Below are positions 2,003 to 45,134 of a DNA stretch of 50,951 nucleotides, one piece after another. Source of the DNA: Patescibacteria group bacterium (lineage in GTDB: Bacteria > Patescibacteriota > Minisyncoccia > UBA6257 > 2-01-FULL-56-20); assembly GCA_038077975.1 (NCBI GenBank), contig JBBUGM010000027.1, positions 1-50,951 on the forward strand, written 5' to 3'. Position numbers and translations under genes: made by a program. The notes beneath the pieces were generated by a model. The model saw only the letters and a list, made by a program, of their open reading frames with translations. It did not search any database and was not told the origin of the DNA. Positions within the stretch are counted from its first letter, which is position 1, and each line of letters begins with the position of its first letter.

Positions 2003-3748
2003 GTGAACGAAGAATGCCGCTGCTTTCAAGAAGAAAACCTTGTTCCTCTGCCATTGGGCCTTTGGCGGAGCATCAACAGCAATCCTCAAAGAACCGCCAT
2101 TGATTTCTGCGGACGCGCGTTCAGCTATGAAGATCTTGGCCTTTGGGCGGCGACTTTTAAAAAAATATTCGCTGGCCTTGGCGGTTTGGGCACCCCGGGC
2201 GACGAGATTCCGCGCATATCGCTCCTCCTGCCGAACGTGCCACAGTTTATCTTTGCTTATTTTGGCGCGCTCCTGAACCGCCAGATCGTCTCGCCCGTAA
2301 ACTATGTTCCCTTGGCAAGCCAACTCAAGACAGCCAAACCGAAAAATATCAAAATTGATGAGAAACTAATCAAACAATTCGAACAAACGCGTCTGAGCAT
2401 CGTTGTTGTGGCCGAACCGTTCTGGCCGATTCTCGAAAAGGTCGGTTTGGAACTATTCCGCGATTCCGTGATTATTATCACGAGCCCGGCCGATTTTCTT
2501 CCGAAAACGAAAAGTGTGCTCTATCCCCTGAGCGCTCTTTGGAACTACGGATTTGTAAGAATTCCGAAACGAGGGAACGTCGTCCGGCTTCGCGACCTTC
2601 TGCAGAACGACTGGCGACCATCGTTTGGCGTCTTCGAGGAATACGCCGCAAGTCCTGCCGCGCTCGAGGATGTCTCCCACTTGCAATATACGGGCGGCAC
2701 AACCGGCGCTCCGAAGGGCGCGATGTTAACTCATGAAAATTTGGTCTCTAACCTCTGGCGATGCCGCGAATATCTTGGCGAGATCGTTGAAGACGGTGCC
2801 TCCATGCTAGCCGCTTTGCCGCTGTGCCACTCTTACGGATTCACAATGGCCATGACAACGCTCATCGGCCTTAAGGGGAAACTCGTGCTCTTGCCGAAAT
2901 TTTCTCCAAAAGAGGCCTGTAAACTGATCGAGAAACATAAGATCAAGCTTTTTCCCGGATCGGGAAAGATGTTCGAAGCGATCCGGCCGCTGGTCGGCCA
3001 CTACGATCTTTCATCGTTGACATTCTGCCCAACAGGAGCGGAAAAAACGCCAACCGAACTCATTTCTTCGCTCCGCAAACAAGGCGTTCCCGTTTATGAG
3101 GGGTATGGACAATCGGAAACATCTCCCGTGATTTCTTTCTGCAAACCCGGCGCGGATAAAATCGGCAGCGTCGGCAAACCCATACCGGGAACCGAAATCC
3201 GCATTGTTGACGTCGAAAGCGGCGAAGAAAAACCGGCGGGAGAAATGGGCGAAATAATCGTGCGCGGGCCGCAGGTAATGAAGGGCTATTACGGCAACCA
3301 GAAAGAATCGGCGGCAAAAATAAAAAACGGCTGGCTTTATACCGGCGATGTCGGAAAAATTGACGAAGACGGATTTCTTTGGTTTATCGATCGAGAAGAC
3401 AATTCCGGAAAAGTGGCCGGGGAGTGGGTTTACGGAGCCCCCGTCCGCGAGTTTTTGCTTAAATATTGGGACATCAAGAATTGTGTCGTATTCTGCGTAC
3501 TTGACGAAAAAACCGGCCAATCCCCGGCCCACGCGTTTATTCTGCCAGGCGCGTCATTTACGAAAGAAGGTCTTGCCGCGCATCTCCGCGACCTGCCAAA
3601 CCCTTACTGGAGACCCAAAAAGGTGGTCATTTTTGACGAACCGGCGTTCAATCAGTGGTTCGATCCCGTTTTAAACAAGGTGAACTTCAAGGCCGCGAAA
3701 AAGTATTATCTTGAAAATCGCGATACGCTCCGATCGATTTATCCTTAA
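2003..3748 (+). CDS. Adenylate-forming enzyme, long-chain acyl-CoA ligase (FadD-like)
   Basis: YTGGTTGAPKG, YEGYGQSE, RGPQVMKGY and YTGDVG motifs; SD GAGGGG before GTG. Confidence 0.88.
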   Translation: MNEECRCFQEENLVPLPLGLWRSINSNPQRTAIDFCGRAFSYEDLGLWAATFKKIFAGLGGLGTPGDEIPRISLLLPNVPQFIFAYFGALLNRQIVSPVNYVPLASQLKTAKPKNIKIDEKLIKQFEQTRLSIVVVAEPFWPILEKVGLELFRDSVIIITSPADFLPKTKSVLYPLSALWNYGFVRIPKRGNVVRLRDLLQNDWRPSFGVFEEYAASPAALEDVSHLQYTGGTTGAPKGAMLTHENLVSNLWRCREYLGEIVEDGASMLAALPLCHSYGFTMAMTTLIGLKGKLVLLPKFSPKEACKLIEKHKIKLFPGSGKMFEAIRPLVGHYDLSSLTFCPTGAEKTPTELISSLRKQGVPVYEGYGQSETSPVISFCKPGADKIGSVGKPIPGTEIRIVDVESGEEKPAGEMGEIIVRGPQVMKGYYGNQKESAAKIKNGWLYTGDVGKIDEDGFLWFIDREDNSGKVAGEWVYGAPVREFLLKYWDIKNCVVFCVLDEKTGQSPAHAFILPGASFTKEGLAAHLRDLPNPYWRPKKVVIFDEPAFNQWFDPVLNKVNFKAAKKYYLENRDTLRSIYP

Positions 3749-22863: not shown

Positions 22864-23793
22864 ATGGAAAAAATTCAAATTGCCGGGGCTTCGCCAGAAG
22901 AAAAGACACGCACCGAGCGCGGGGCGCAAAATTACGATGAAGAGGGGGGGCTTAAACAGATCGAGGGGGAATCGGAGAAAACAGGGCGGGAGAGATGGAT
23001 AATCGAAAAAATAAACGAATATTTAAATAAAGAGCTCTCTCTTTTGGGAATAAAAGAAGGTGTCGCGCTCCCGCAAGAAAATTTCCATTTTCTGTCGCAA
23101 GAAGTTTATAAAAAATTCGCCGCGTCGCAAAAATTTGCAGAAGGCATTAACGCCGAAAATATTCCTGCTTTCTATTCTTCGGATTACGGTGCCGCATATA
23201 TAAACAAAGATCAAGGGACAGATTTACAGCGCTTCGTTCGCTTGTTCCACGAGGCCGTACACAAGGCATCTGCCGTCGTAGCGCACACGAATCTTGATAA
23301 AAAAATATCCCGTAGGCGGCTAGGATACAGAATAACAAGAAATCCGAATGGCGGCGAAGGAGACGCGATTCGGCTTTATGGTTTTAATGAAGCCGTTACC
23401 GAAACCGCGACAAGAGAAATATTAAGCAAGCACAGAAATGAGCTAGAGGGAACGTTGGCAACCGACGAAGAAAAAAGTGATCCGAAATTATTTACTTACG
23501 ATACGGAGCGCTATATTATTGACCTGATAATCCAAAAAATTGCGGAGGCGGACGGCGAAGGTCGGGAGATTGTTTGGAATCGTATAAAACGCGGCTTATT
23601 TACGGGGGAAATGATGCACTTAAGACAAGTTGAGAAAATTTTTGGAAGAAAATCTCTGAAAATGTTGTCCTTGCTCGGAACGAGCGGCGGAAAGCTTTCT
23701 AGAAAGGAAACTACTAAAAAAATTACTGCCTATTTCGAAGCCGACGACACAAACATGCGACAGCAAATAGCCGAGGATCTTCTTGGAGCGTAA
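22864..23793 (+). CDS. Putative zinc metallopeptidase (gluzincin-like)
   Basis: FHEAVH (HExxH) plus downstream GFNEAVTE. Confidence 0.7.
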   Translation: MEKIQIAGASPEEKTRTERGAQNYDEEGGLKQIEGESEKTGRERWIIEKINEYLNKELSLLGIKEGVALPQENFHFLSQEVYKKFAASQKFAEGINAENIPAFYSSDYGAAYINKDQGTDLQRFVRLFHEAVHKASAVVAHTNLDKKISRRRLGYRITRNPNGGEGDAIRLYGFNEAVTETATREILSKHRNELEGTLATDEEKSDPKLFTYDTERYIIDLIIQKIAEADGEGREIVWNRIKRGLFTGEMMHLRQVEKIFGRKSLKMLSLLGTSGGKLSRKETTKKITAYFEADDTNMRQQIAEDLLGA

Positions 23794-23805
23794 TTCTGCT
23801 GACTG

Positions 23806-24063
23806 CTACCCCTTCAAAACATATCCCCTGAGCTTTTCGTCCCATTCAATGTGTCCCTCGCTGACTAGTTTATCGAGCGCGGTTTTTAAGACAACTTCGT
23901 CCACCTCTTTTCCGTGCTGTTTCTTGAAAAATTCTTTGATTTCGGCAACCGTAGCTCCATCCATCTCGTCAAACATTGAAAGGAGAATGTCATCTTCAAA
24001 ACCCGTTTCACCCGTTGTTTTTGGTCCTTTTTCGCCTCCCATAAAAACAGATAAAAATCCCAT
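23806..24063 (-). CDS. Small winged-helix-like protein
   Basis: ATVAEIKEFF...VLKTALDKLVSEGHIEWD...GYVL pattern; 9 nt downstream of the M23 gene. Confidence 0.62.
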   Translation of the reverse strand: MGFLSVFMGGEKGPKTTGETGFEDDILLSMFDEMDGATVAEIKEFFKKQHGKEVDEVVLKTALDKLVSEGHIEWDEKLRGYVLKG

Positions 24064-24072
24064 TTTGCTGAT

Positions 24073-25059
24073 TTATTTCGCAAGCGGGTTCGCCGCGCCA
24101 TAAACCTCAAAGTGCAAGTGGCAGCCGGAAGAATCGCCTGTCTGTCCCATCGTGCCCAAAACTTCTCCTTGCTCAACATAATCGCCGGCGGAAACCGAAA
24201 TTTTCGCCATGTGCGCGTAGCGGGTTCGCACGCCATCGCCAAAAGGATGTTCGATCAAAACGAATCTGCCATAGCCGCCGTTCCAGCCATCGCGCCCATC
24301 GCCGAAGCTGGAGTCGGGAATTACAAGGCCTTCCGCCGCGGCGCGTATCGGGGTGCCGCAAACATTTGCAACGTCAACTGCGTTATAGTTGTGAAGCCGT
24401 CCCCAGTTAAATCCTTCCGCGGGTCGCGTGAAGTGGTCTCCGAAACTTGGGAGTGAAGCGGATTTGTTCTGAACCAAATTGAAACTTTTTGCTCCCGGGA
24501 TTATTAAAGAAATTCCGACTCCCAAACTTCCGAAATCAATGCCTTCGTTATATTGGATTATTTGACTTTCGGAAACGCTGAAATACGCCGAGATCGATTC
24601 AAGCGTGTCGCCGTCCTTCGTGGTGTAAACGACGCCCGAAACCGGCAAAACGTTAAGCTCGTCTCCCGCCTTGATGAATCGCGCCCGAATTCCCGGGTTC
24701 GCGTTAATAAGCGTTTCAAGCGATACGCCGAAGTAAGCGGCGATGCCGGAAAGCGTGTCTCCCGCTTGCACTCTGTAGACCAAAAGATTCCCGCGGCTCT
24801 CGGGGCCGATCGGCTGGCCGGGATCGGAAATCTGGCCCGAAGAAAGGTCGGCGTCGGGATCGCCATAGCCGCCATCAAGAACGTTTATGAATATCGAAGA
24901 CCTGTTATAAAGCTCGAATTCCGGCGGAGAGTAGGCGACATCTTCTTCTGCGACCGCTTCCGGTCCTCCTAAAACCCCATATTCTTCACCCGAAGAAACA
25001 CTTGCGGAGGACGCAAAAAAGCCGACGAGGAAAAGCGCCCCTAGCAAAAAAAGAGCCAT
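24073..25059 (-). CDS. LysM-domain M23 peptidase
   Basis: Two LysM repeats (YRVQAGDTLSGIA, YTTKDGDTLESIS), HNYNAVD, YAHM, GCHLHFEV; start uncertain, but the TTG at 25143 lies upstream of a TG-TATAGT -10, so ATG 25059 is preferred. Confidence 0.88.
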   Translation of the reverse strand: MALFLLGALFLVGFFASSASVSSGEEYGVLGGPEAVAEEDVAYSPPEFELYNRSSIFINVLDGGYGDPDADLSSGQISDPGQPIGPESRGNLLVYRVQAGDTLSGIAAYFGVSLETLINANPGIRARFIKAGDELNVLPVSGVVYTTKDGDTLESISAYFSVSESQIIQYNEGIDFGSLGVGISLIIPGAKSFNLVQNKSASLPSFGDHFTRPAEGFNWGRLHNYNAVDVANVCGTPIRAAAEGLVIPDSSFGDGRDGWNGGYGRFVLIEHPFGDGVRTRYAHMAKISVSAGDYVEQGEVLGTMGQTGDSSGCHLHFEVYGAANPLAK

Positions 25060-25144
25060 TACAAGTGGCTTTTTATCCTTATTAAATTGACCTAAGATTG
25101 TACTGATAACTTGACTATAGCACATCGTTATTCCGAGGAACAAC

Positions 25145-25238
25145 GCGCGGATTTATGCGGATTTGCGTCCGCTCACGGCCGCTGATACGTGCGGAAATAT
25201 CAGCATAAATCGGTTAAAATCAGCATTAATCAGCGCAA
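25145..25238. repeat. Periodic palindromic element (GCGGAT/ATCAGC family) before pcrA
   Basis: gcggattt units followed by atcagc units; homologous to 21200-21237. Confidence 0.7.
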
Positions 25239-25239
25239 C

Positions 25240-27312
25240 ATGCAAGACCTAAATCCACAACAAAAAAAGGCGGCCGAGGCGGCGGTCGGGCCGCTTATAA
25301 TAGTGGCCGGCGCCGGAACCGGAAAAACGCGCACATTAACGCACCGCATCATTCATTTAATAAATGAAGGGGTGCCGCCCGAGAGGGTCTGCGCGATAAC
25401 CTTCACGAATAAAGCGGCGGAAGAAATGCGTTCACGCATTTCTTTATCAACGAATAACGAATCAATTGCGAATAAACGAATTCGTAAATTCGAAACAAAT
25501 TTGTTATTCGCTGATTTGCCTTTTATAGGCACCTTCCACTCTCTTGGCGCGAAAATTTTACGGAAAGAAGCGCGCGCCCTTGGTCGAGCGCCGAACTTCG
25601 TTATTTTCGATAGCGACGATTCTTTTTCGCTCATTAAAAGAATCGTTAAAAAATTTTTCCCGAAAGAAGATCACAAAAAAGTTCTTCGACAAGCTCAGGA
25701 TAAAAAATCTCCGGCGTATTTCGCAAGAAAGATCGGTGAGATAAAAAATTTATATAATGCTGATGGCGATGATTATCGCCTGAGCGAACGGAGCGAGTCG
25801 AAGGCCAACCATCTAAAAACCCTTCGACAAGCTCAGGGAATAAACTGTGTTAAAATTTATAACGAATACGAGAACGAATTGAAAAAAAATAATGCATTCG
25901 ATTTTGATGACCTTATCGAAAAACCGGTTTCGCTTTTCGAAAAACATCCGGAGATCCTTGAAAAATATCAGAAAAAATTTGACGCCATCCTTGTCGACGA
26001 ATATCAAGATGTGAATCCGAAGCAATATGATTTCGTGCGCTTGCTTTCCGGCGGTCACAGAAACTTGAGCGTAGTAGGGGACGATGAGCAGATGATCTAT
26101 GGCTGGAGATATGCCGATGTAAAAATATTTTTGAATTTCGACCGTGATTGGCCTGGCGCGCAAATCGCATTCCTCGAAGAAAATTATCGTTCGACCGCGA
26201 ACATCATCAATGCCGCGGCCGCCGTCGCGAAAAATAATTTATTGCGGACACCGAAAACCCTTTGGACAAAAAGCGAGGCCGGCGCTCCGATAAAGATCAT
26301 CGAGATTGCGGATGAAGAGCAGGAAGCGGAATATATCGCGCGGGCAATATATAATGCCGATGATGCGGACGGAAACAATGCGGATGATGCCGATAACCAT
26401 CCGCAACATCCGCATAAAACATTCGTAGATCCGCATTATGAAAGCATCGCCGTGCTCTATAGGACCAACGCCCAGTCGCGGGCGCTAGAACAGGCGCTTA
26501 TCCGGCACCAAATTCCCTATAAGATATTCGGCGGAGTGCGGTTTTACGAGAGAAAAGAGATCAAGGATATAATTGCTGCCTTGCGCTGGGTTTTTAATCC
26601 GAAAGACACGATAAGCCGCGAAAGATTGGAGAAAAACCTGCCGAAATTCAAGTTTCGGGCGCTTGAAGACGCCCTAATTGAAACCAAAAATGAGCTCGCC
26701 GCGCCAAAGACGAACGGCGGAGGCGGGCTACCGACAGAACTTATCAAGACGTTTCTCGAAGCAACCGATTACCTCGAATATCTTGACAGGAGCTACTTAA
26801 ACGCCGAGGAAAGGCGGGAGAACATCAAGGAATTGGTGGGGTTTGCCGCCGGATTTGATGACTTGGAACGTTTTTTGGAAGAAGTGGCGCTGGTGCAACC
26901 CCTCGATCAATCTGGCGACAACAATAAAAATCGGGGTATCATCCAAAAAAATCAAGAAAATCATTCGGGGCATTCGGATGTATTTGTAGATTCGGATCGC
27001 GGCAGGTGGCCGGAGGTCCACCTGATGACCATCCACCTTGCGAAGGGGCTGGAGTTCGATCGCGTATTCATCGCCGGTTGCTCCGAGGGATTAATGCCCC
27101 ATGCGATGTCTATGGACAAGAGCGAACAACTCGAAGAAGAGAGGCGGCTGATGTACGTCGCGATGACGCGCGCGAAAAAAGAATTGAATATCAGTTTCTA
27201 CAACATTCCGTCGCGATTTATCGGCGAAATCCCGCAGGAACTTGCCGAATATAAAACCGCCGCGGATAATGCGGCGGGAAACGAAGAGGAGGAAATCGTT
27301 TTCTTGGATTAA
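25240..27312 (+). CDS. pcrA: SF1 helicase PcrA/UvrD with several repeat-derived insertions
   Basis: GAGTGKT, TFTNKAA, DEYQD, VGDDEQ, LEENYRS, LYRTNAQS, AKGLEF, EERRLMYVAMTRAK; ATG 25240. Confidence 0.95.
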   Translation: MQDLNPQQKKAAEAAVGPLIIVAGAGTGKTRTLTHRIIHLINEGVPPERVCAITFTNKAAEEMRSRISLSTNNESIANKRIRKFETNLLFADLPFIGTFHSLGAKILRKEARALGRAPNFVIFDSDDSFSLIKRIVKKFFPKEDHKKVLRQAQDKKSPAYFARKIGEIKNLYNADGDDYRLSERSESKANHLKTLRQAQGINCVKIYNEYENELKKNNAFDFDDLIEKPVSLFEKHPEILEKYQKKFDAILVDEYQDVNPKQYDFVRLLSGGHRNLSVVGDDEQMIYGWRYADVKIFLNFDRDWPGAQIAFLEENYRSTANIINAAAAVAKNNLLRTPKTLWTKSEAGAPIKIIEIADEEQEAEYIARAIYNADDADGNNADDADNHPQHPHKTFVDPHYESIAVLYRTNAQSRALEQALIRHQIPYKIFGGVRFYERKEIKDIIAALRWVFNPKDTISRERLEKNLPKFKFRALEDALIETKNELAAPKTNGGGGLPTELIKTFLEATDYLEYLDRSYLNAEERRENIKELVGFAAGFDDLERFLEEVALVQPLDQSGDNNKNRGIIQKNQENHSGHSDVFVDSDRGRWPEVHLMTIHLAKGLEFDRVFIAGCSEGLMPHAMSMDKSEQLEEERRLMYVAMTRAKKELNISFYNIPSRFIGEIPQELAEYKTAADNAAGNEEEEIVFLD

Positions 27313-28535
27313 ATGCTCGTCCCGGCAATAGAAAACAAGCTTCCTGTTCCAATTACGGTACAAAATGGAGGGGTCGCAAAAATTAGCTGAACGCACGGCT
27401 TGGCAAAAGAATAATTTCCCAACCAAATTGCGCCAATTCTCATGGATTCAAACGGATAGAAAAATGGAGGGAATACCATGCTAAGCGGCATAACAAGGGA
27501 ATCCGAAACGGGCGGTGGCGTTGGTAGCGTGATACCAAACCAAAAATTTGCACTGCAAATGCAAAATGGTGGCCAGCCGTAAATTGGCCCGCCCGGAGGA
27601 AGAGTGATGGCCCCGCCAAATCCCGGCAACTGTGCAAATGCTCGCTTTGGCACACCTAAAAATTCTGCCAGTTTCTGAAAAATGCCGGTGGAATCGTAAG
27701 AAAGAACATTCAATTGATCCAAAAATTTTTCATTTTCGAATAAGGATGTTGTTCGAAAGCGAGCAAAAAACAGTGTAAGTTCCTGCACGCTAATTCTGCC
27801 TTCGATTGTGGCGATAGCCTTATCGATCAACTCAATTGTTAAATCGTTCAAAGAAATTACCAATTTATTAGTCGTGGCTCCATCTCCAAAAACAGAGATA
27901 GATCTGGCGAATTCCTTACGGGCTTCCATAAAATCACGATAGATAAGCAAAGAATTTTTTATTTCCGGCGATCTTGCTCCATCTAATACTTTTTGGACAA
28001 GTTCATTCGGCAAAAGAGGACCGCTGCTTGCGTTTAATGCCAAATTTGCAAAACGAAGATTGTCAAATTCGATGCTTTCATAGCCGGAAGAAAACGCTTC
28101 AGCGTAATCAAGTGCTGTTTTCACACCGGCACTATCTATTCGCAGAATTTCATCGGCGATTACTGGCAGTTTAAGAAGTTCTTCGGCAGGCGGCGGCACG
28201 GTTATACCCGGCTGCCCCAGGGCATCTTGAACAGCCCTTGTCACGTCTTCTATCGACGGCACTTTTATGTCGAATTTAGGCGGTGAAATCGGCTCAAAAA
28301 CGCTTTTCCCGTCCTCGAGAGAGGGGATTCCGAGTGGGCCGGATGGGATGGATTCTGGCGGCAAAAACGCGCTCCCAGAGGGCTTAAATTCTGGTACGGA
28401 AACCGGCGGCAATCCGCCCCCGGGAGCTACGGCTTCCTTGGGCGCGGTGAATGGCGGAAAAACGAATATTAAAATTAAAAGAAGTCCTAGGCCGGCCACG
28501 GCAACAACGATCAAAAATTTGGGAGAATTAAGCAT
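27309..28535 (-). CDS. Membrane-anchored two-module surface protein
   Basis: N-terminal TM, Pro-rich linker, helical module, internal PKRAFA, Cys-containing C-terminal domain; stop codon shares TTAA with pcrA. Confidence 0.8.
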   Translation of the reverse strand: MLNSPKFLIVVAVAGLGLLLILIFVFPPFTAPKEAVAPGGGLPPVSVPEFKPSGSAFLPPESIPSGPLGIPSLEDGKSVFEPISPPKFDIKVPSIEDVTRAVQDALGQPGITVPPPAEELLKLPVIADEILRIDSAGVKTALDYAEAFSSGYESIEFDNLRFANLALNASSGPLLPNELVQKVLDGARSPEIKNSLLIYRDFMEARKEFARSISVFGDGATTNKLVISLNDLTIELIDKAIATIEGRISVQELTLFFARFRTTSLFENEKFLDQLNVLSYDSTGIFQKLAEFLGVPKRAFAQLPGFGGAITLPPGGPIYGWPPFCICSANFWFGITLPTPPPVSDSLVMPLSMVFPPFFYPFESMRIGAIWLGNYSFAKPCVQLIFATPPFCTVIGTGSLFSIAGTSI

Positions 28536-28564
28536 CTTATAAAATTATAATAGCACAATTCCAG

Positions 28565-28682
28565 ACAAATTTTCAATTATCAATTCTCAATTTTCAATCA
28601 AACCTCAAGCATTAATGCGCAATTGAAAATTAAACCATTTTGGAACTTTATTGATAATTGCTCATTGAAAATTGATAATTAA
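28565..28682. repeat. 7-nt periodic palindromic element (TCAATT/AATTGA family)
   Basis: Left arm ttttcaa-ttatcaa-ttctcaa-ttttcaa; right arm ttgaaaa/ttgataa units. Confidence 0.8.
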
Positions 28683-28685
28683 GCC

Positions 28686-29573
28686 ATGAGTCGCCTTGGC
28701 CAACATTTTTTAAAAGATAAAGTCGCGCTCAAAAAAATTGTTGATGCGCTGGATTTGCGCTCCGGTGACATCGTTATTGAGATTGGAGCGGGACACGGAG
28801 AGCTCACTAGAAAAATTATCAATTTTCAATTATCAATTTTCAAAAACGATGCGCAAAAAATTAAAATTATTGCAATCGAAAAAGACAATGGTCTCGCAAA
28901 AGAATTTGCGAGAAATTTTCAATGTCCAATTTCCAAGTTTCAAGAAAATGCTGATAAATTACTAAATGAAAATTTCGTGCTCTTTAATGATGATGTTTTG
29001 AAAATTCTAGCGCCCTTGATCGAATTTCTAAATTTGAAAATTGAAAATTGTAAATTGAAAATTTGCGGGAATATTCCCTACTACATCACCGGAAAACTTT
29101 TGCGTATTTTGAGCGAGCTGGAAAATAAGCCGGAGGTTTCCGTTTTCACAATCCAAAAAGAGGTTGCCGAAAGAATGTGCGCCTTGCCGCCGCGTAATAA
29201 CCGCTTGGCCGCAATAACACAGTTCTGGACAGAGCCAAAAATCCTCGAATATCTCGCGCCCGGGGCGTTTAATCCGCCGCCGGAGGTGGAGTCCGCCATC
29301 ATTAGATTAAAAATCAAAGATCAAAATGCAAAATTGATCGACGCGTGGAAATACTACGAAACCGTAAGAATTTTGTTCCAACAGCCGCGCCAAACAATTT
29401 TGAACAACCTCGCGCGGGCGACTAAACAAAAAAGGGCCATCGGCACAAATCAGCCCAATCGGCATAAATCAGCGATTATAGAAAAGCTTTCCGCAATAGA
29501 GATCGATCCCGAAAGCCGGCCACAAAATTTGAGCGTTGGAGAAATAATTCAAATCAGCTCCTTAAACCTTTGA
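28686..29573 (+). CDS. rsmA: 16S rRNA dimethyladenosine transferase with repeat-derived insertions
   Basis: LGQHFL, IEIGAGHGELT, AIEKD, GNIPYYIT, QKEVAERM, FNPPPEVESA, RPQNLS. Confidence 0.95.
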   Translation: MSRLGQHFLKDKVALKKIVDALDLRSGDIVIEIGAGHGELTRKIINFQLSIFKNDAQKIKIIAIEKDNGLAKEFARNFQCPISKFQENADKLLNENFVLFNDDVLKILAPLIEFLNLKIENCKLKICGNIPYYITGKLLRILSELENKPEVSVFTIQKEVAERMCALPPRNNRLAAITQFWTEPKILEYLAPGAFNPPPEVESAIIRLKIKDQNAKLIDAWKYYETVRILFQQPRQTILNNLARATKQKRAIGTNQPNRHKSAIIEKLSAIEIDPESRPQNLSVGEIIQISSLNL

Positions 29574-34819: not shown

Positions 34820-36358
34820 ATGACTAATATCACCACGCAACAAGCAAGGGCGCGCTTCACAACAATTCCGCAAATCTTGCAGAACGAGGTTTTTTCCGTA
34901 CAAAACGCGGAAGTTATCGAGCAAATCTCGAAGCAAAATAATTTACCCGACGAGAAAATAGGAGAAGTTGCGGAAGTTGTTGGTTTCGCTCTTTTGGGGT
35001 TCATCCATCCCGAAGATGTGGCGAAAGAAGTAGAAGAACGGGCCGAAATTCCGCCCGCGCTTGCAACCGCGATATCCGAAGCGATAAATAAAAAAATATT
35101 CGCTTCTTTAAGAAACCAGTTAGATGAAATCTATGCTCCGGCTCCCCACGATCACGAACTCGAAGAAAAACCGCCGGTCTTTGTGGAAGAAATTAGGCCG
35201 CCGGTGGCGACTGCTCCTTCCGCTCCGAAAATGCCGACGGCGGTGCAACCCGTTGATATCAACAAAATTTTTGGCCCTTCGGCTGGCTCAGGGCAGGCGA
35301 TGACGCGACCCATTCCGCCGCCAGCGGTAAAACCTTTCGGCGCAATACAGGTTAAACCGCCGATGCCGCCTGCGCCGTCAACCGCAACAGGAATGAAAGT
35401 AGAGCCGCCCAAGCCGCCAGTATCGCAAATCTCTCCGATAAAGCCCGCCTCATCGACGCCTACATCAAAACCGCCCGGCAAGGAGGGATTGAGCGAATTT
35501 GAACGCCTCGGACTCGCCAAAAAATTAGGAGAGGCAACAGAACCAACGGTGCTTTACAAAGCACCAGAGGCAAAACTCGGCGAAAAAGTATCGAGTTTCA
35601 AGATCGAAACGCCGATCCCGAAATTCGACAAAGGAAAGCCCTTCGACTCCGCTCGGGGTATAACCGCTCCCCTAAGGCCGGCAGTACTCGAATTCGGGAC
35701 GGGCAAGCCGCCAGCCGCCCCTCCTTCGCCCAAAGCCGCGGAGGGCAAGGCGAGAATTGTGAACTATTCGGATCTAAAAACGACTCTTCCCCCGGTGGCA
35801 CCAAAACCGGCTCCAGAAAGAGAAATTAGGGAATTCACCGCGAAAGAAGCCGGACTCCCGACTTCACCCTCCAAAATTTCTGAAAGAAATTTAGGAGGGC
35901 AGGCGTCGGGAATGACAGAGAGGCCAGCGGCCGTGGCGCCATCGCCAATTAAACCCTTCGACTTCGCTTCCGCCGACGCCAGGGCTTTGGCGGACAGGCA
36001 GGGAATAAAAGCTCCAGAAAAACCAGCGGCTACACCCATGTCCAGACCACTCTTGGGGGACGAGAAAGCGATGCACCCCTCCCTTGAACCGTTGATGAAA
36101 AAAAGCGAGCCGCCCTCGCCTCCGGCTACGGCGAGCCAAAGACCGCCGGCTCCGCCGCCTTCCCCTTCGACAAGCTCAGGGAATAACGGAAGTTTATCGC
36201 CTGAGCGAGCTTCACGAGTCGAAGGCCGCCCTGCGACAAGCCCGGGAAATAACTCGACAAGCTCGGAGAATAACACCCCGCTGGCTTCTCCTCGCCCAAG
36301 AATCGAGCCACCACCCGTTCGTCGGCCAGAAAATCCATCCGACGAACGCAAGCTCTAA
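34820..36358 (+). CDS. Protein with a folded N-terminal helical domain and a Pro-rich disordered tail built partly from REP-like repeats
   Basis: Ordered first ~105 aa, then P/S/A-rich; repeat copies detailed in findings. Confidence 0.8.
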   Translation: MTNITTQQARARFTTIPQILQNEVFSVQNAEVIEQISKQNNLPDEKIGEVAEVVGFALLGFIHPEDVAKEVEERAEIPPALATAISEAINKKIFASLRNQLDEIYAPAPHDHELEEKPPVFVEEIRPPVATAPSAPKMPTAVQPVDINKIFGPSAGSGQAMTRPIPPPAVKPFGAIQVKPPMPPAPSTATGMKVEPPKPPVSQISPIKPASSTPTSKPPGKEGLSEFERLGLAKKLGEATEPTVLYKAPEAKLGEKVSSFKIETPIPKFDKGKPFDSARGITAPLRPAVLEFGTGKPPAAPPSPKAAEGKARIVNYSDLKTTLPPVAPKPAPEREIREFTAKEAGLPTSPSKISERNLGGQASGMTERPAAVAPSPIKPFDFASADARALADRQGIKAPEKPAATPMSRPLLGDEKAMHPSLEPLMKKSEPPSPPATASQRPPAPPPSPSTSSGNNGSLSPERASRVEGRPATSPGNNSTSSENNTPLASPRPRIEPPPVRRPENPSDERKL

Positions 36359-44512: not shown

Positions 44513-44839
44513 TTAGAAATTTTGCTTGATTTTTTCTCCAAACGTCCGAAGCGCTTCCTTAACTTCTTCCGCGGTTGCTTCGTTAATTTTTTTGAAAACT
44601 ATGACCAGAATGTCTTTTTGATTCTCTGCGGATTTTTTAATTTCATCGGCGATGATCCTTCTCCAAAAATTCCTCCTTGCGGCGTTTTTCACTGCCGCGG
44701 AAGAAATGATGATCCCGAATCTGGGGTGGACTACTTCGTTTTCGAAAACCTTTATCAAAAAGAATGGCAGCGAGATCGTTTGCTTCGGCTTTTTCCTTTT
44801 CGTTTCTTCTACGGCCAGACGAAATTTTTTGGAATACAT
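44513..44839 (-). CDS. rnpA: Ribonuclease P protein component
   Basis: RFGIIISSAAVKNAARRNFWRRII (RNR-like), DILVI; position after rpmH. Confidence 0.85.
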   Translation of the reverse strand: MYSKKFRLAVEETKRKKPKQTISLPFFLIKVFENEVVHPRFGIIISSAAVKNAARRNFWRRIIADEIKKSAENQKDILVIVFKKINEATAEEVKEALRTFGEKIKQNF

Positions 44840-44844
44840 ACGCT

Positions 44845-44933
44845 AACGCAAGCGATGCTAAACTACGAATCTCATGCGAATCTACGAAAAATAATTCGCG
44901 GCATTCGCATGTATTTGAAGATTCGAATCGCGA
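44845..44933. repeat. CGAAT/ATTCG-family element between rpmH and rnpA
   Basis: 44894-44931 matches pcrA 26963-27000 at 34 of 38 nt. Confidence 0.78.
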
Positions 44934-45068
44934 TTAAACCGTGAGTCGCCGCCTCCCTTTCTGCCTCCGGCGCGAAAGAACGCGTCTGCCTCCCGGACTT
45001 CTCCTTCTCCGCAAGAAGCCGTGGGTTCTGCTCCTTTTTCTTTTCTTTGGTTGGAACGTTATCGACAT
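44934..45068 (-). CDS. rpmH: 50S ribosomal protein L34 (not in the ORF track)
   Basis: [44 protein letters not shown], 44 aa. Confidence 0.95.
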
Positions 45069-45075
45069 GGAAATC

Positions 45076-45104
45076 ATCGTATCACAGAGGAATCGTGCTG
45101 CCAA
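45076..45104 (-). promoter_or_regulatory. rpmH promoter, likely leaderless
   Basis: TTGGCA-17-(TGa)TACGAT, then 7 nt to ATG. Confidence 0.6.
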
Positions 45105-45134
45105 ATGAGGCAAGCGTGAATTGAGCTAAAAAAG

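Follow-up and report, generated by a model that had tools for sequence, protein, structure and literature searches.

Short palindromic repeats of four families occupy five loops of a PcrA-type helicase in a Patescibacteria genome

How does the sole pcrA gene found in a small genome come to carry, within its open reading frame (ORF), DNA that recurs mostly between genes elsewhere in that genome? The question is raised by a 50,951-nt stretch of DNA (hereafter, the window), which is contig JBBUGM010000027.1 (positions 1 to 50,951, forward strand) of assembly GCA_038077975.1 from a Patescibacteria group bacterium. The original prediction, made from the letters of the window, was that pcrA holds about five in-frame insertions derived from intergenic repeat families. 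The genome (G000) is metagenome-assembled, measures 771,694 bp in 33 contigs, and is 88.6% complete; its contigs are designated C1, C2, and so on, and the window is C27. We found that five segments of pcrA are members of four repeat families, designated A, C, D, and E, whose short palindromic elements are dispersed throughout the genome. We conclude that these are very probably selfish repeats, which inside genes have been filtered by selection.

The repeated DNA in pcrA is confined to few places. When positions 25100-27400 were compared with the genome (blastn), non-self matches fell only at 25441-25515, 25674-25714, 25770-25846, 26352-26419, and 26963-27003. Because repeated DNA occurs at these five sites alone, the predicted "about five" is exact, and all five segments have family members across the genome, as identified by iterated nhmmer searches seeded with each insert, with matches merged into loci (Table 1). 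The repeat-derived DNA amounts to ~339 nt, or 113 codons, which agrees with the predicted order of 100 amino acids (aa); the net excess over the median homolog is ~66 aa. The elements are 68, 32, 71, 89, and 79 nt long in segments (a) through (e), and none of these lengths is a multiple of three. Peptide stretches predicted from the inserts or their junctions include NNESIANK, LSERSESK, TLRQAQGINCVK, and TFVDPHYESIAVLYR.

Table 1. Positions in the window of the helicase gene, its repeat-derived segments, and other repeat copies
Feature	Positions	Strand	Description
pcrA/uvrD-type superfamily 1 (SF1) helicase gene	25240..27312	+	690 aa including stop; sole copy found in genome
Insert (a), family A palindrome ATCAACGAATAACGAAT...ATTCGCTATTCGCTGAT	25447..25514	+	aa 70-92 = STNNESIANKRIRKFETNLLFA; nhmmer E = 1e-16
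Insert (b), solo family C arm	25679..25710	+	VLRQAQDKKS, aa 147-157
Insert (c), full family C hairpin CCTGAGCGAACGGAGCGAGTCGAAGG, loop, CCCTTCGACAAGCTCAGGG	25773..25843	+	YRLSERSESKANHLKTLRQAQGI, aa 178-202; E = 1e-17
Insert (d), family D palindrome AATGCCGATGATGCGGA...ATCCGCAACATCCGCAT...	26351..26439	+	NADDADGNNADDADNHPQHPHKTFVDPHY, aa 371-400; E = 2e-20
Insert (e), family E element	26925..27003	+	KNRGIIQKNQENHSGHSDVFVDSDRG, aa 562-588; E = 7e-13
Intergenic palindrome of a further repeat family, GCGGATTTATGCGGATTT...AAATCAGCATTAATCAGCGC	25146..25236		91 nt; ends 4 nt before pcrA ATG
Reference intergenic family E hairpin	44852..44932		Between rnpA (44513-44839, -) and rpmH (44934-45113, -); nhmmer, both strands
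Family C copies in other frame (PSTSSGNN, LSPERASRVEG)	36132..36273	+	Inside Pro-rich gene 34820-36358

Three of the segments are complete elements. The palindrome of segment (a), predicted at 25449-25511, was found at 25446-25515 as a member of family A, with 70 nt in two 35-nt arms that are 77% complementary; it encodes STNNESIANKRIRKFETNLLFAD. Segments (c) and (d) lie exactly where a hairpin and a palindrome had been predicted, the former as a full family C element and the latter as a member of family D with a full-length intergenic relative at C21:4524-4611 (82% identical). The DNA of (a) folds with z = -3.67, and that of (c) and (d) folds better than shuffled sequences (z = -3.77 and z = -3.21, respectively).

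The other two segments likewise exist where predicted, with amendments to how they are read. Segment (b), predicted as an LRQAQD insertion at 25684-25701, is a genuine repeat copy, given that it matches C31:15751-15782 at 31 of 32 bases, in another gene and in the same reading frame (VLRQAQDKKS). The 16-mer CTTCGACAAGCTCAGG, which segments (b) and (c) share, is found exactly three times in the window versus 0.03 times expected, and family C cores in the window are located at 25684, 25822, and 36165. The loop that holds (b), however, shows no net gain in length (20 aa versus a median of 21 aa in homologs), although VLRQAQDK coincides exactly with an 8-residue gap against PcrA 1PJR. Segment (b) thus amounts to a patch of repeat sequence within a loop that was variable to begin with, and not to a clear net insertion. 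Segment (e) was predicted from a match to the element between rpmH and rnpA. That match holds, at 34 of 38 bases over the span originally compared and at 40 of 45 bases against the spacer copy at 44888-44932, but the element is half decayed. Its right arm (26960-27001) is conserved, the left arm (~26925-26959) is decayed and weakly alignable to an intact hairpin in the pcrA homolog P0004, and (e) alone forms no hairpin (z = +0.47).

The gene that carries these segments appears otherwise intact. ORF 25189/25240-27312 on the forward strand encodes a UvrD/PcrA-type SF1 helicase (Pfam UvrD-helicase, 7.7e-82; UvrD_C, 1.5e-62; plus UvrD_C_2), whose closest match in the PDB is Geobacillus PcrA 1PJR (3e-100). 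A GTG codon at 25189 was considered as the start and dropped in favor of the ATG at 25240, with which the N-termini of orthologs agree. As in SF1A helicases, an N-terminal UvrD-helicase domain is followed by a C-terminal UvrD_C domain, and motifs Q, I, Ia, II, III, IV, V, and VI are present. That all helicase motifs had survived was part of the prediction, and GAGTGKT, TFTNKAA, DEYQD, VGDDEQ.IY.WR, YRTNAQSR, T.H.AKGLEF, and VAMTRA are indeed kept in alignments of 20 and of 45 sequences. A search of the whole 88.6% complete genome for a second pcrA returned one full-length match only. The assembly of pcrA is sound across the inserts: an independent assembly (ENA ERZ1292638, NODE_610, 31,409 bp) reproduces positions 23240-29312 of the window, gap-free and with a single mismatch in 6073 bp.

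Comparison with other PcrA proteins places the segments in variable loops. Orthologs lack these peptides: in an alignment with 19 of them from related genomes, the same-genus ortholog (G001, L014) has none of the five segments. Against 1PJR, HMMER placed gaps at (a), at VLRQAQDK of (b), at (c), and at 19 residues of (d). In the domain nomenclature of PcrA, this alignment puts (a) between motif Ia and the TFHS strand, (b) and (c) in the 1B region, (d) immediately ahead of motif IV, and (e) in the linker that precedes motif V. Loops a, c, d, and e of this PcrA are 27, 39, 33, and 38 aa long, respectively, compared to medians of 16.5, 25, 15.5, and 24 aa in 44 homologs.

The predicted structure agrees with this placement. 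An AlphaFold2 model built from a 45-sequence alignment (mean predicted local distance difference test score [pLDDT], 79; predicted template modeling score, 0.75) has nine segments with pLDDT < 50, and five of them are the inserts: aa 78-89 (a), 147-149 (b), 176-186 (c), 386-398 (d), and 555-587 (e). The remaining ones are a Gly-rich loop (aa 491-495), a three-residue loop (aa 286-288), and the C-terminal tail (aa 678-685 and 687-690). The Gly-rich loop belongs to a sixth long loop (positions 26671-26730, aa 478-498, GGGG, LIETKNELAAPKTNGGGGL), which is twice the median homolog length. It was rejected as repeat-derived, having no repeated DNA elsewhere in the genome.

Are the repeats peculiar to pcrA? 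Families A, C, D, and E total ~148 loci in the 0.77-Mb genome, and most of them are intergenic. The 68-nt family A has 23 loci, 3 of them wholly inside coding sequences; family C, whose arms flank a loop, has 54 loci (29 inside); the 88-nt family D has 9 loci (1 inside, in pcrA); and family E, defined by a ~40-nt arm, TTCGCGGCATTCGSATGTATTTGTAGWTTCGRATCGCG, that is often accompanied by a complementary one to its left, has 62 loci (9 inside). Altogether, 42 in-frame copies were found in 31 genes, many of which encode core proteins, so the predicted spread of several repeat families into core proteins is supported by these counts. The host genes include those for IleRS, LeuRS, UvrA, DnaK, a GatA-type amidase, two Mur ligases (MurC/D-type), alanine racemase, TsaD, MiaA, transketolase, RsmE, and MreC. 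Given hosts so varied, the repeat process is genome-wide, and pcrA, with five segments from four families, is its most heavily loaded host gene. Genes were called with a home-made hexamer model (803 genes, 84% coding).

The families also meet one another outside genes. At two unlinked intergenic loci (C21:7722-7884 and C31:27104-27269), a full family C hairpin sits precisely midway in a family D palindrome, flanked by the left and right D arms, an arrangement that suggests a preference for hairpin tips. The palindrome directly upstream of pcrA (Table 1; fold z = -2.67) has partial copies at C32:20825-20866 and C8:4412-4474, plus other short matches. Two of the synthetase hosts contain additional domains: IleRS (C14:5650-9306, L021) has a histidine-phosphatase domain (His_Phos_1, aa 523-692) that separates the two halves of its catalytic domain, as well as a family C insert at aa 739-749, and LeuRS (C11:62224-65832, L022) has inserted Ser_hydrolase and NUDIX domains and family C inserts at aa 472-486 and 788-804.

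Other host genes offer clean cases. In DnaK, SPSTSSGQAE occupies the loop of a hairpin, and 9 of 11 relatives read VKMG directly followed by DKWY, with nothing between; at the same spot, a genome of another family (G019) has DPSAGSGQGR and a further one (G002) has a different insert. A second in-frame copy of family A lies in tsaD (C32:6325-6392, 89% identical to insert [a]), where it follows YYLRD and is read in the same frame as in pcrA (STNNELSANKRIRKFVKNSLFAD). In the loop where TsaD here holds family A, the TsaD of genome G010 holds the family-E-like NSEHSDGFVVSNRV. In G024, a genome of the same order, dnaK and tsaD (C61:156-2018 and C28:5977-7011) each have one in-frame TGA, which may represent recoding or sequencing error.

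The frames in which the repeats are read bear on how they arrived. Of the 44 family C cores found when one mismatch is allowed, 28 are in coding sequences, where they are read as PSTSSG (16 cores), LRQAQG (10 cores), or PELVEG (2 cores). The stop-containing frame is never used, and neither is the PFDKLR frame, though it is open. In-gene cores are 26 sense versus 2 antisense, and thus biased in strand as well as in frame. Every pcrA insert is read in an open, hydrophilic frame, and at least one other sense frame has a stop in all of them except (a). Because identical DNA is read in different frames of unrelated proteins, its presence points to insertion at the level of DNA rather than to protein homology. 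Exclusive use of open frames is what one would expect if insertion occurred everywhere and all but the harmless copies were lost.

The families differ widely in their distribution. Among 151 genomes of the class, family D is found in this genome only. Family A is scattered patchily over 22 of the 151, and its full-length copies in other taxonomic families are 82-86% identical. The 16-mer of family C is present 44 times here, once in a same-genus genome, and 0 to 11 times in 29 other relatives, and its expansion is therefore lineage-specific and looks recent. Of 201 Patescibacteria genomes searched for this core, 65 contain it (reversed-sequence controls were near zero). Beyond this group, the exact 18-mer CCTTCGACAAGCTCAGGG is present in at least 120 contigs of a 596-Gb collection, for which ~17 chance matches are estimated. 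The phyla among the matches listed include Proteobacteria, Chloroflexota, Actinomycetota, Bacteroidota, Cyanobacteria, Acidobacteriota, and others, and in these matches the 18-mer usually sits in a long GC-rich hairpin, CCGTTCG-GGCTGAGCTTGTCGAAGCC...CCCTTCGACAAGCTCAGGG-CGAACGG. Such conservation across many phyla would imply recognition by conserved machinery or frequent horizontal spread. No Rfam family reached the gathering score for any of the repeats, the only matches being sub-threshold ones to microRNA-precursor-like hairpins, and we found no Rfam family or paper that covers the cross-phylum repeat. In a Candidatus Staskawiczbacteria contig (MHOU01000011.1, L050:415-432), the core directly follows a putative tRNA 3' end (...GGTTCAAATCCCGATGGGACCGC, then CCTTCGAC...).

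Homologs of pcrA, which carry the names Candidatus Liptonbacteria, Paceibacterota, and Patescibacteria, indicate how loop content changes over time. One homolog, P0035, from another Liptonbacteria of an unrelated sample (L185, GCA_030650255.1, JAUSEL010000084.1), carries family A (3211-3278) at the codon and in the frame that it occupies here. The two inserts share 82% DNA identity, compared to 59.5% for the rest of the gene. Another family A copy lies just upstream of the P0035 gene start (L185:2904-2993). In a maximum-likelihood tree of a loop-free alignment, this PcrA groups with P0002 and P0003 (98/92), both of which lack family A, and P0035 groups with P0098 (100/100). The shared family A may thus reflect either an independent second hit at one site or similarity kept by exchange with other copies. 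P0035 and P0098 are 72% identical overall; their loops a, d, and e are unrelated, while loops b and c are homologous. In P0004, family E (NSGRSDVFVDSGRG) occupies loop a, and other repeat peptides (IHNSQFII, SNFQFSIF/ENCKLKIEN, TNDKRLMTND...ISHKSLV) fill loops a, d, and e of many homologs. From these loop comparisons, it follows that loop content turns over much faster than the protein.

We propose that palindromic repeats of families A, C, D, and E, which are short and non-autonomous, colonized five surface loops of pcrA that are variable, and that the same families spread over ~148 loci genome-wide, mostly between genes. The copies that survive inside genes would be those that keep the frame, offer a stop-free and mostly hydrophilic reading, and land in loops tolerant of extra residues. 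Such copies presumably become disordered loops in the translated helicase, which is intact in other respects; both their translation and insertion as the originating event are what we infer.

Several observations weigh against this account. The home-made gene calls make the counts of copies inside coding sequences approximate for short ORFs, and short host ORFs may be spurious. A search for Y1/RAYT (REP-associated tyrosine transposase, where REP is a repetitive extragenic palindrome; PF01797), DDE_Tnp_1, and DDE_3 returned no gene in this genome and gave matches in control genomes; other transposase families were not searched, and because the genome is 88.6% complete, the absence is provisional. 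No transposase-like genes turned up other than two divergent rve-type (DDE integrase) ORFs, at C2:8502-9581 (-) and C1:26060-27097 (+), which share 33% identity and have flanks unlike the repeats. No empty site is available, as the closest PcrA among 5.8 billion proteins is 61% identical, and hence exact insertion ends and target-site duplications cannot be defined. The flanks of family A copies show no common duplication, again with no empty sites for comparison. Finally, with no element length divisible by three, the preserved frame is not accounted for by simple cut-and-paste of a fixed unit alone.

The same combination of lengths and missing empty sites means that transposition cannot be separated from templated patch replacement, in which recombination, gene conversion, or template switching at hairpins would rewrite the same loops repeatedly with genomic copies as donors. 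We regard such replacement as possible, if rather unlikely. It would account for the sister proteins P0035 and P0098 being unrelated in loops a, d, and e yet homologous in b and c, for family A at one codon and frame in non-sister proteins with its elevated DNA identity, for family E in loop e here, in loop a of P0004, and in a tsaD loop of G010, for family C nested in the center of family D at two loci, and for the lack of a candidate transposase among our searches. On the other hand, no donor-recipient tract exceeding the length of an element was seen, the class-wide patchiness of family A fits mobile DNA equally well, and without empty sites both mechanisms predict what is observed. More speculatively still, an active process in Patescibacteria that targets hairpins or loops may repeatedly overwrite the same permissive loops of core proteins with resident palindromic families; the family A site shared by two non-sister PcrA proteins, the wholesale change of loops between P0035 and P0098, the nesting of family C in family D, and the cross-phylum 18-mer would point that way.

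The remaining explanations fare worse. A selected function, whereby the hairpins act in mRNA (pausing or stability) or the peptides add to helicase function, could be read from the sense bias of in-gene family C cores, from element DNA that is more conserved than its host gene, and from the excess of intragenic REPs in repair genes (Di Nocera et al., PMC3733652). We consider it improbable, given that loop content is wholly different between close relatives, the inserts lie in low-confidence loops, the hosts are functionally unrelated, and the hairpin in (e) has decayed. Origin in place, through slippage of 5- to 11-nt words (CGAAT, GCGGATGATGC) with the likeness to intergenic DNA due to shared mutational bias, would suit elements made of repeated words with variable spacers and the direct repeat inside (d). 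It is already strongly disfavored by matches of 68 to 89 nt between unlinked loci that agree in word order and in termini (E = 1e-16 to 1e-20), by the near-identity of (b) to its copy in another gene, and by the full-length copies of family A in other families of the class, and we hold it to be very improbable. The prediction had itself named mis-assembly, or an unexpressed pseudogene beside another intact copy, as grounds for doubt, and a metagenome-assembled genome in 33 contigs and the low coverage of the second assembly (cov 5.3) give some reason to ask. Nonetheless, 690 codons remain open despite five inserts of lengths that are not multiples of three, the motifs are intact, the second assembly differs by one base, a homolog from an unrelated sample shares an insert, and no other pcrA was found; an artifact or a dead gene is, in our judgment, extremely improbable. 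Selfish palindromic repeats, filtered by selection inside genes, thus remain our preferred explanation.

How do these repeats compare with known systems? The precedent invoked in the original prediction, that Rickettsia palindromic elements (RPEs) insert in frame into genes, agrees with PMC10969869, which summarizes RPEs as the classic in-frame palindromic repeats (Ogata et al. 2000 Science). The likeness lies in a reduced genome with several short palindromic families, numerous in-frame copies spread over unrelated housekeeping genes, extra peptide segments compatible with the fold, and no known dedicated transposase. Here too, multi-copy palindromic families are found in frame in unrelated open ORFs, and the inserts appear at segments with modeled pLDDT < 50 and at gaps against 1PJR. 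In contrast to RPEs of ~100-150 bp, the elements described here are ~30-90 nt long and belong to Patescibacteria. Their sequences seem unrelated to RPEs, as judged without RPE sequences in hand, and we describe the families as RPE-like in behavior without filing them as members. Further differences are the five inserts of four families in one gene, the different families that sister lineages hold in the same loops, and the family core that spans many phyla.

REPs are the second point of comparison. Intragenic REPs are described in many bacteria by Di Nocera et al. 2013 (PMC3733652), with replication and repair genes stressed and UvrD/Rep helicases, UvrABC, and RecBCD named. GTAG/CGTC REPs resemble the families found here in being small palindromes, mainly extragenic near gene ends, with a minority in ORFs and often in repair genes, and CGTC REPs have no dedicated transposase (PMC3733652). 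Unlike in GTAG/CGTC REPs, the in-gene share is far higher here (family C, 29 of 54 loci), and no RAYT gene was found in this 88.6% complete genome. Family C was considered as a CGTC/GTAG REP and rejected, as its terminal tags are absent and its peptides are missing from the supplement of PMC3733652. A REP of this class is a 20-40-bp stem-loop with GTAG or CGTC at its end; families A, C, and D have no such terminal tag, family E has an internal GTAG only, and SLSK, FDKLR, LRQAQ, and STSSG are not among the peptides in that supplement.

Bacterial MITEs (miniature transposable elements with inverted repeats) that give in-frame fusions, namely ERIC, BOX, and QMITE1 (PMC10969869), are likewise non-autonomous and dispersed, have inverted-repeat ends, and are occasionally found in genes with the ORF open. 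The repeats described here have terminal inverted repeats by virtue of being palindromic over their whole length, and they differ from MITEs in consisting of short words throughout and not of terminal inverted repeats that flank a core. In a further difference, no related insertion sequence or parent transposase with matching ends was found here (DDE_Tnp_1, DDE_3, rve).

The prediction had also suggested that the phenomenon is undescribed in the candidate phyla radiation (CPR). Our literature search returned no paper that joins CPR or Patescibacteria with in-frame palindromic repeats and no bacterial-repeat paper with the repeat DNA or peptide words, the full-text matches being unrelated and mostly to lactoferrin peptides. 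In-frame REP and RPE insertion, on the other hand, including into UvrD/Rep helicases, has already been published for other phyla (PMC3733652, PMC10969869); what looks undescribed is confined to the CPR setting and the load from several families.

If our reading is correct, spread without a recognizable transposase, with a core that recurs across phyla, is a question that these families have in common with RPEs and CGTC REPs. Repeat DNA supplies ~113 codons of this essential-type repair helicase. The consequences extend to annotation, to searches for homologs, to the prediction of structures, and to alignments for phylogeny across a large uncultivated radiation. The loops that are used provide a natural map of insertion-tolerant sites in SF1 helicases, DnaK, TsaD, and other core proteins. 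We suggest that DNA-level repeat dynamics, and not selection on the protein, seem to be a major cause of length variation in the core proteins of ultra-small CPR bacteria.

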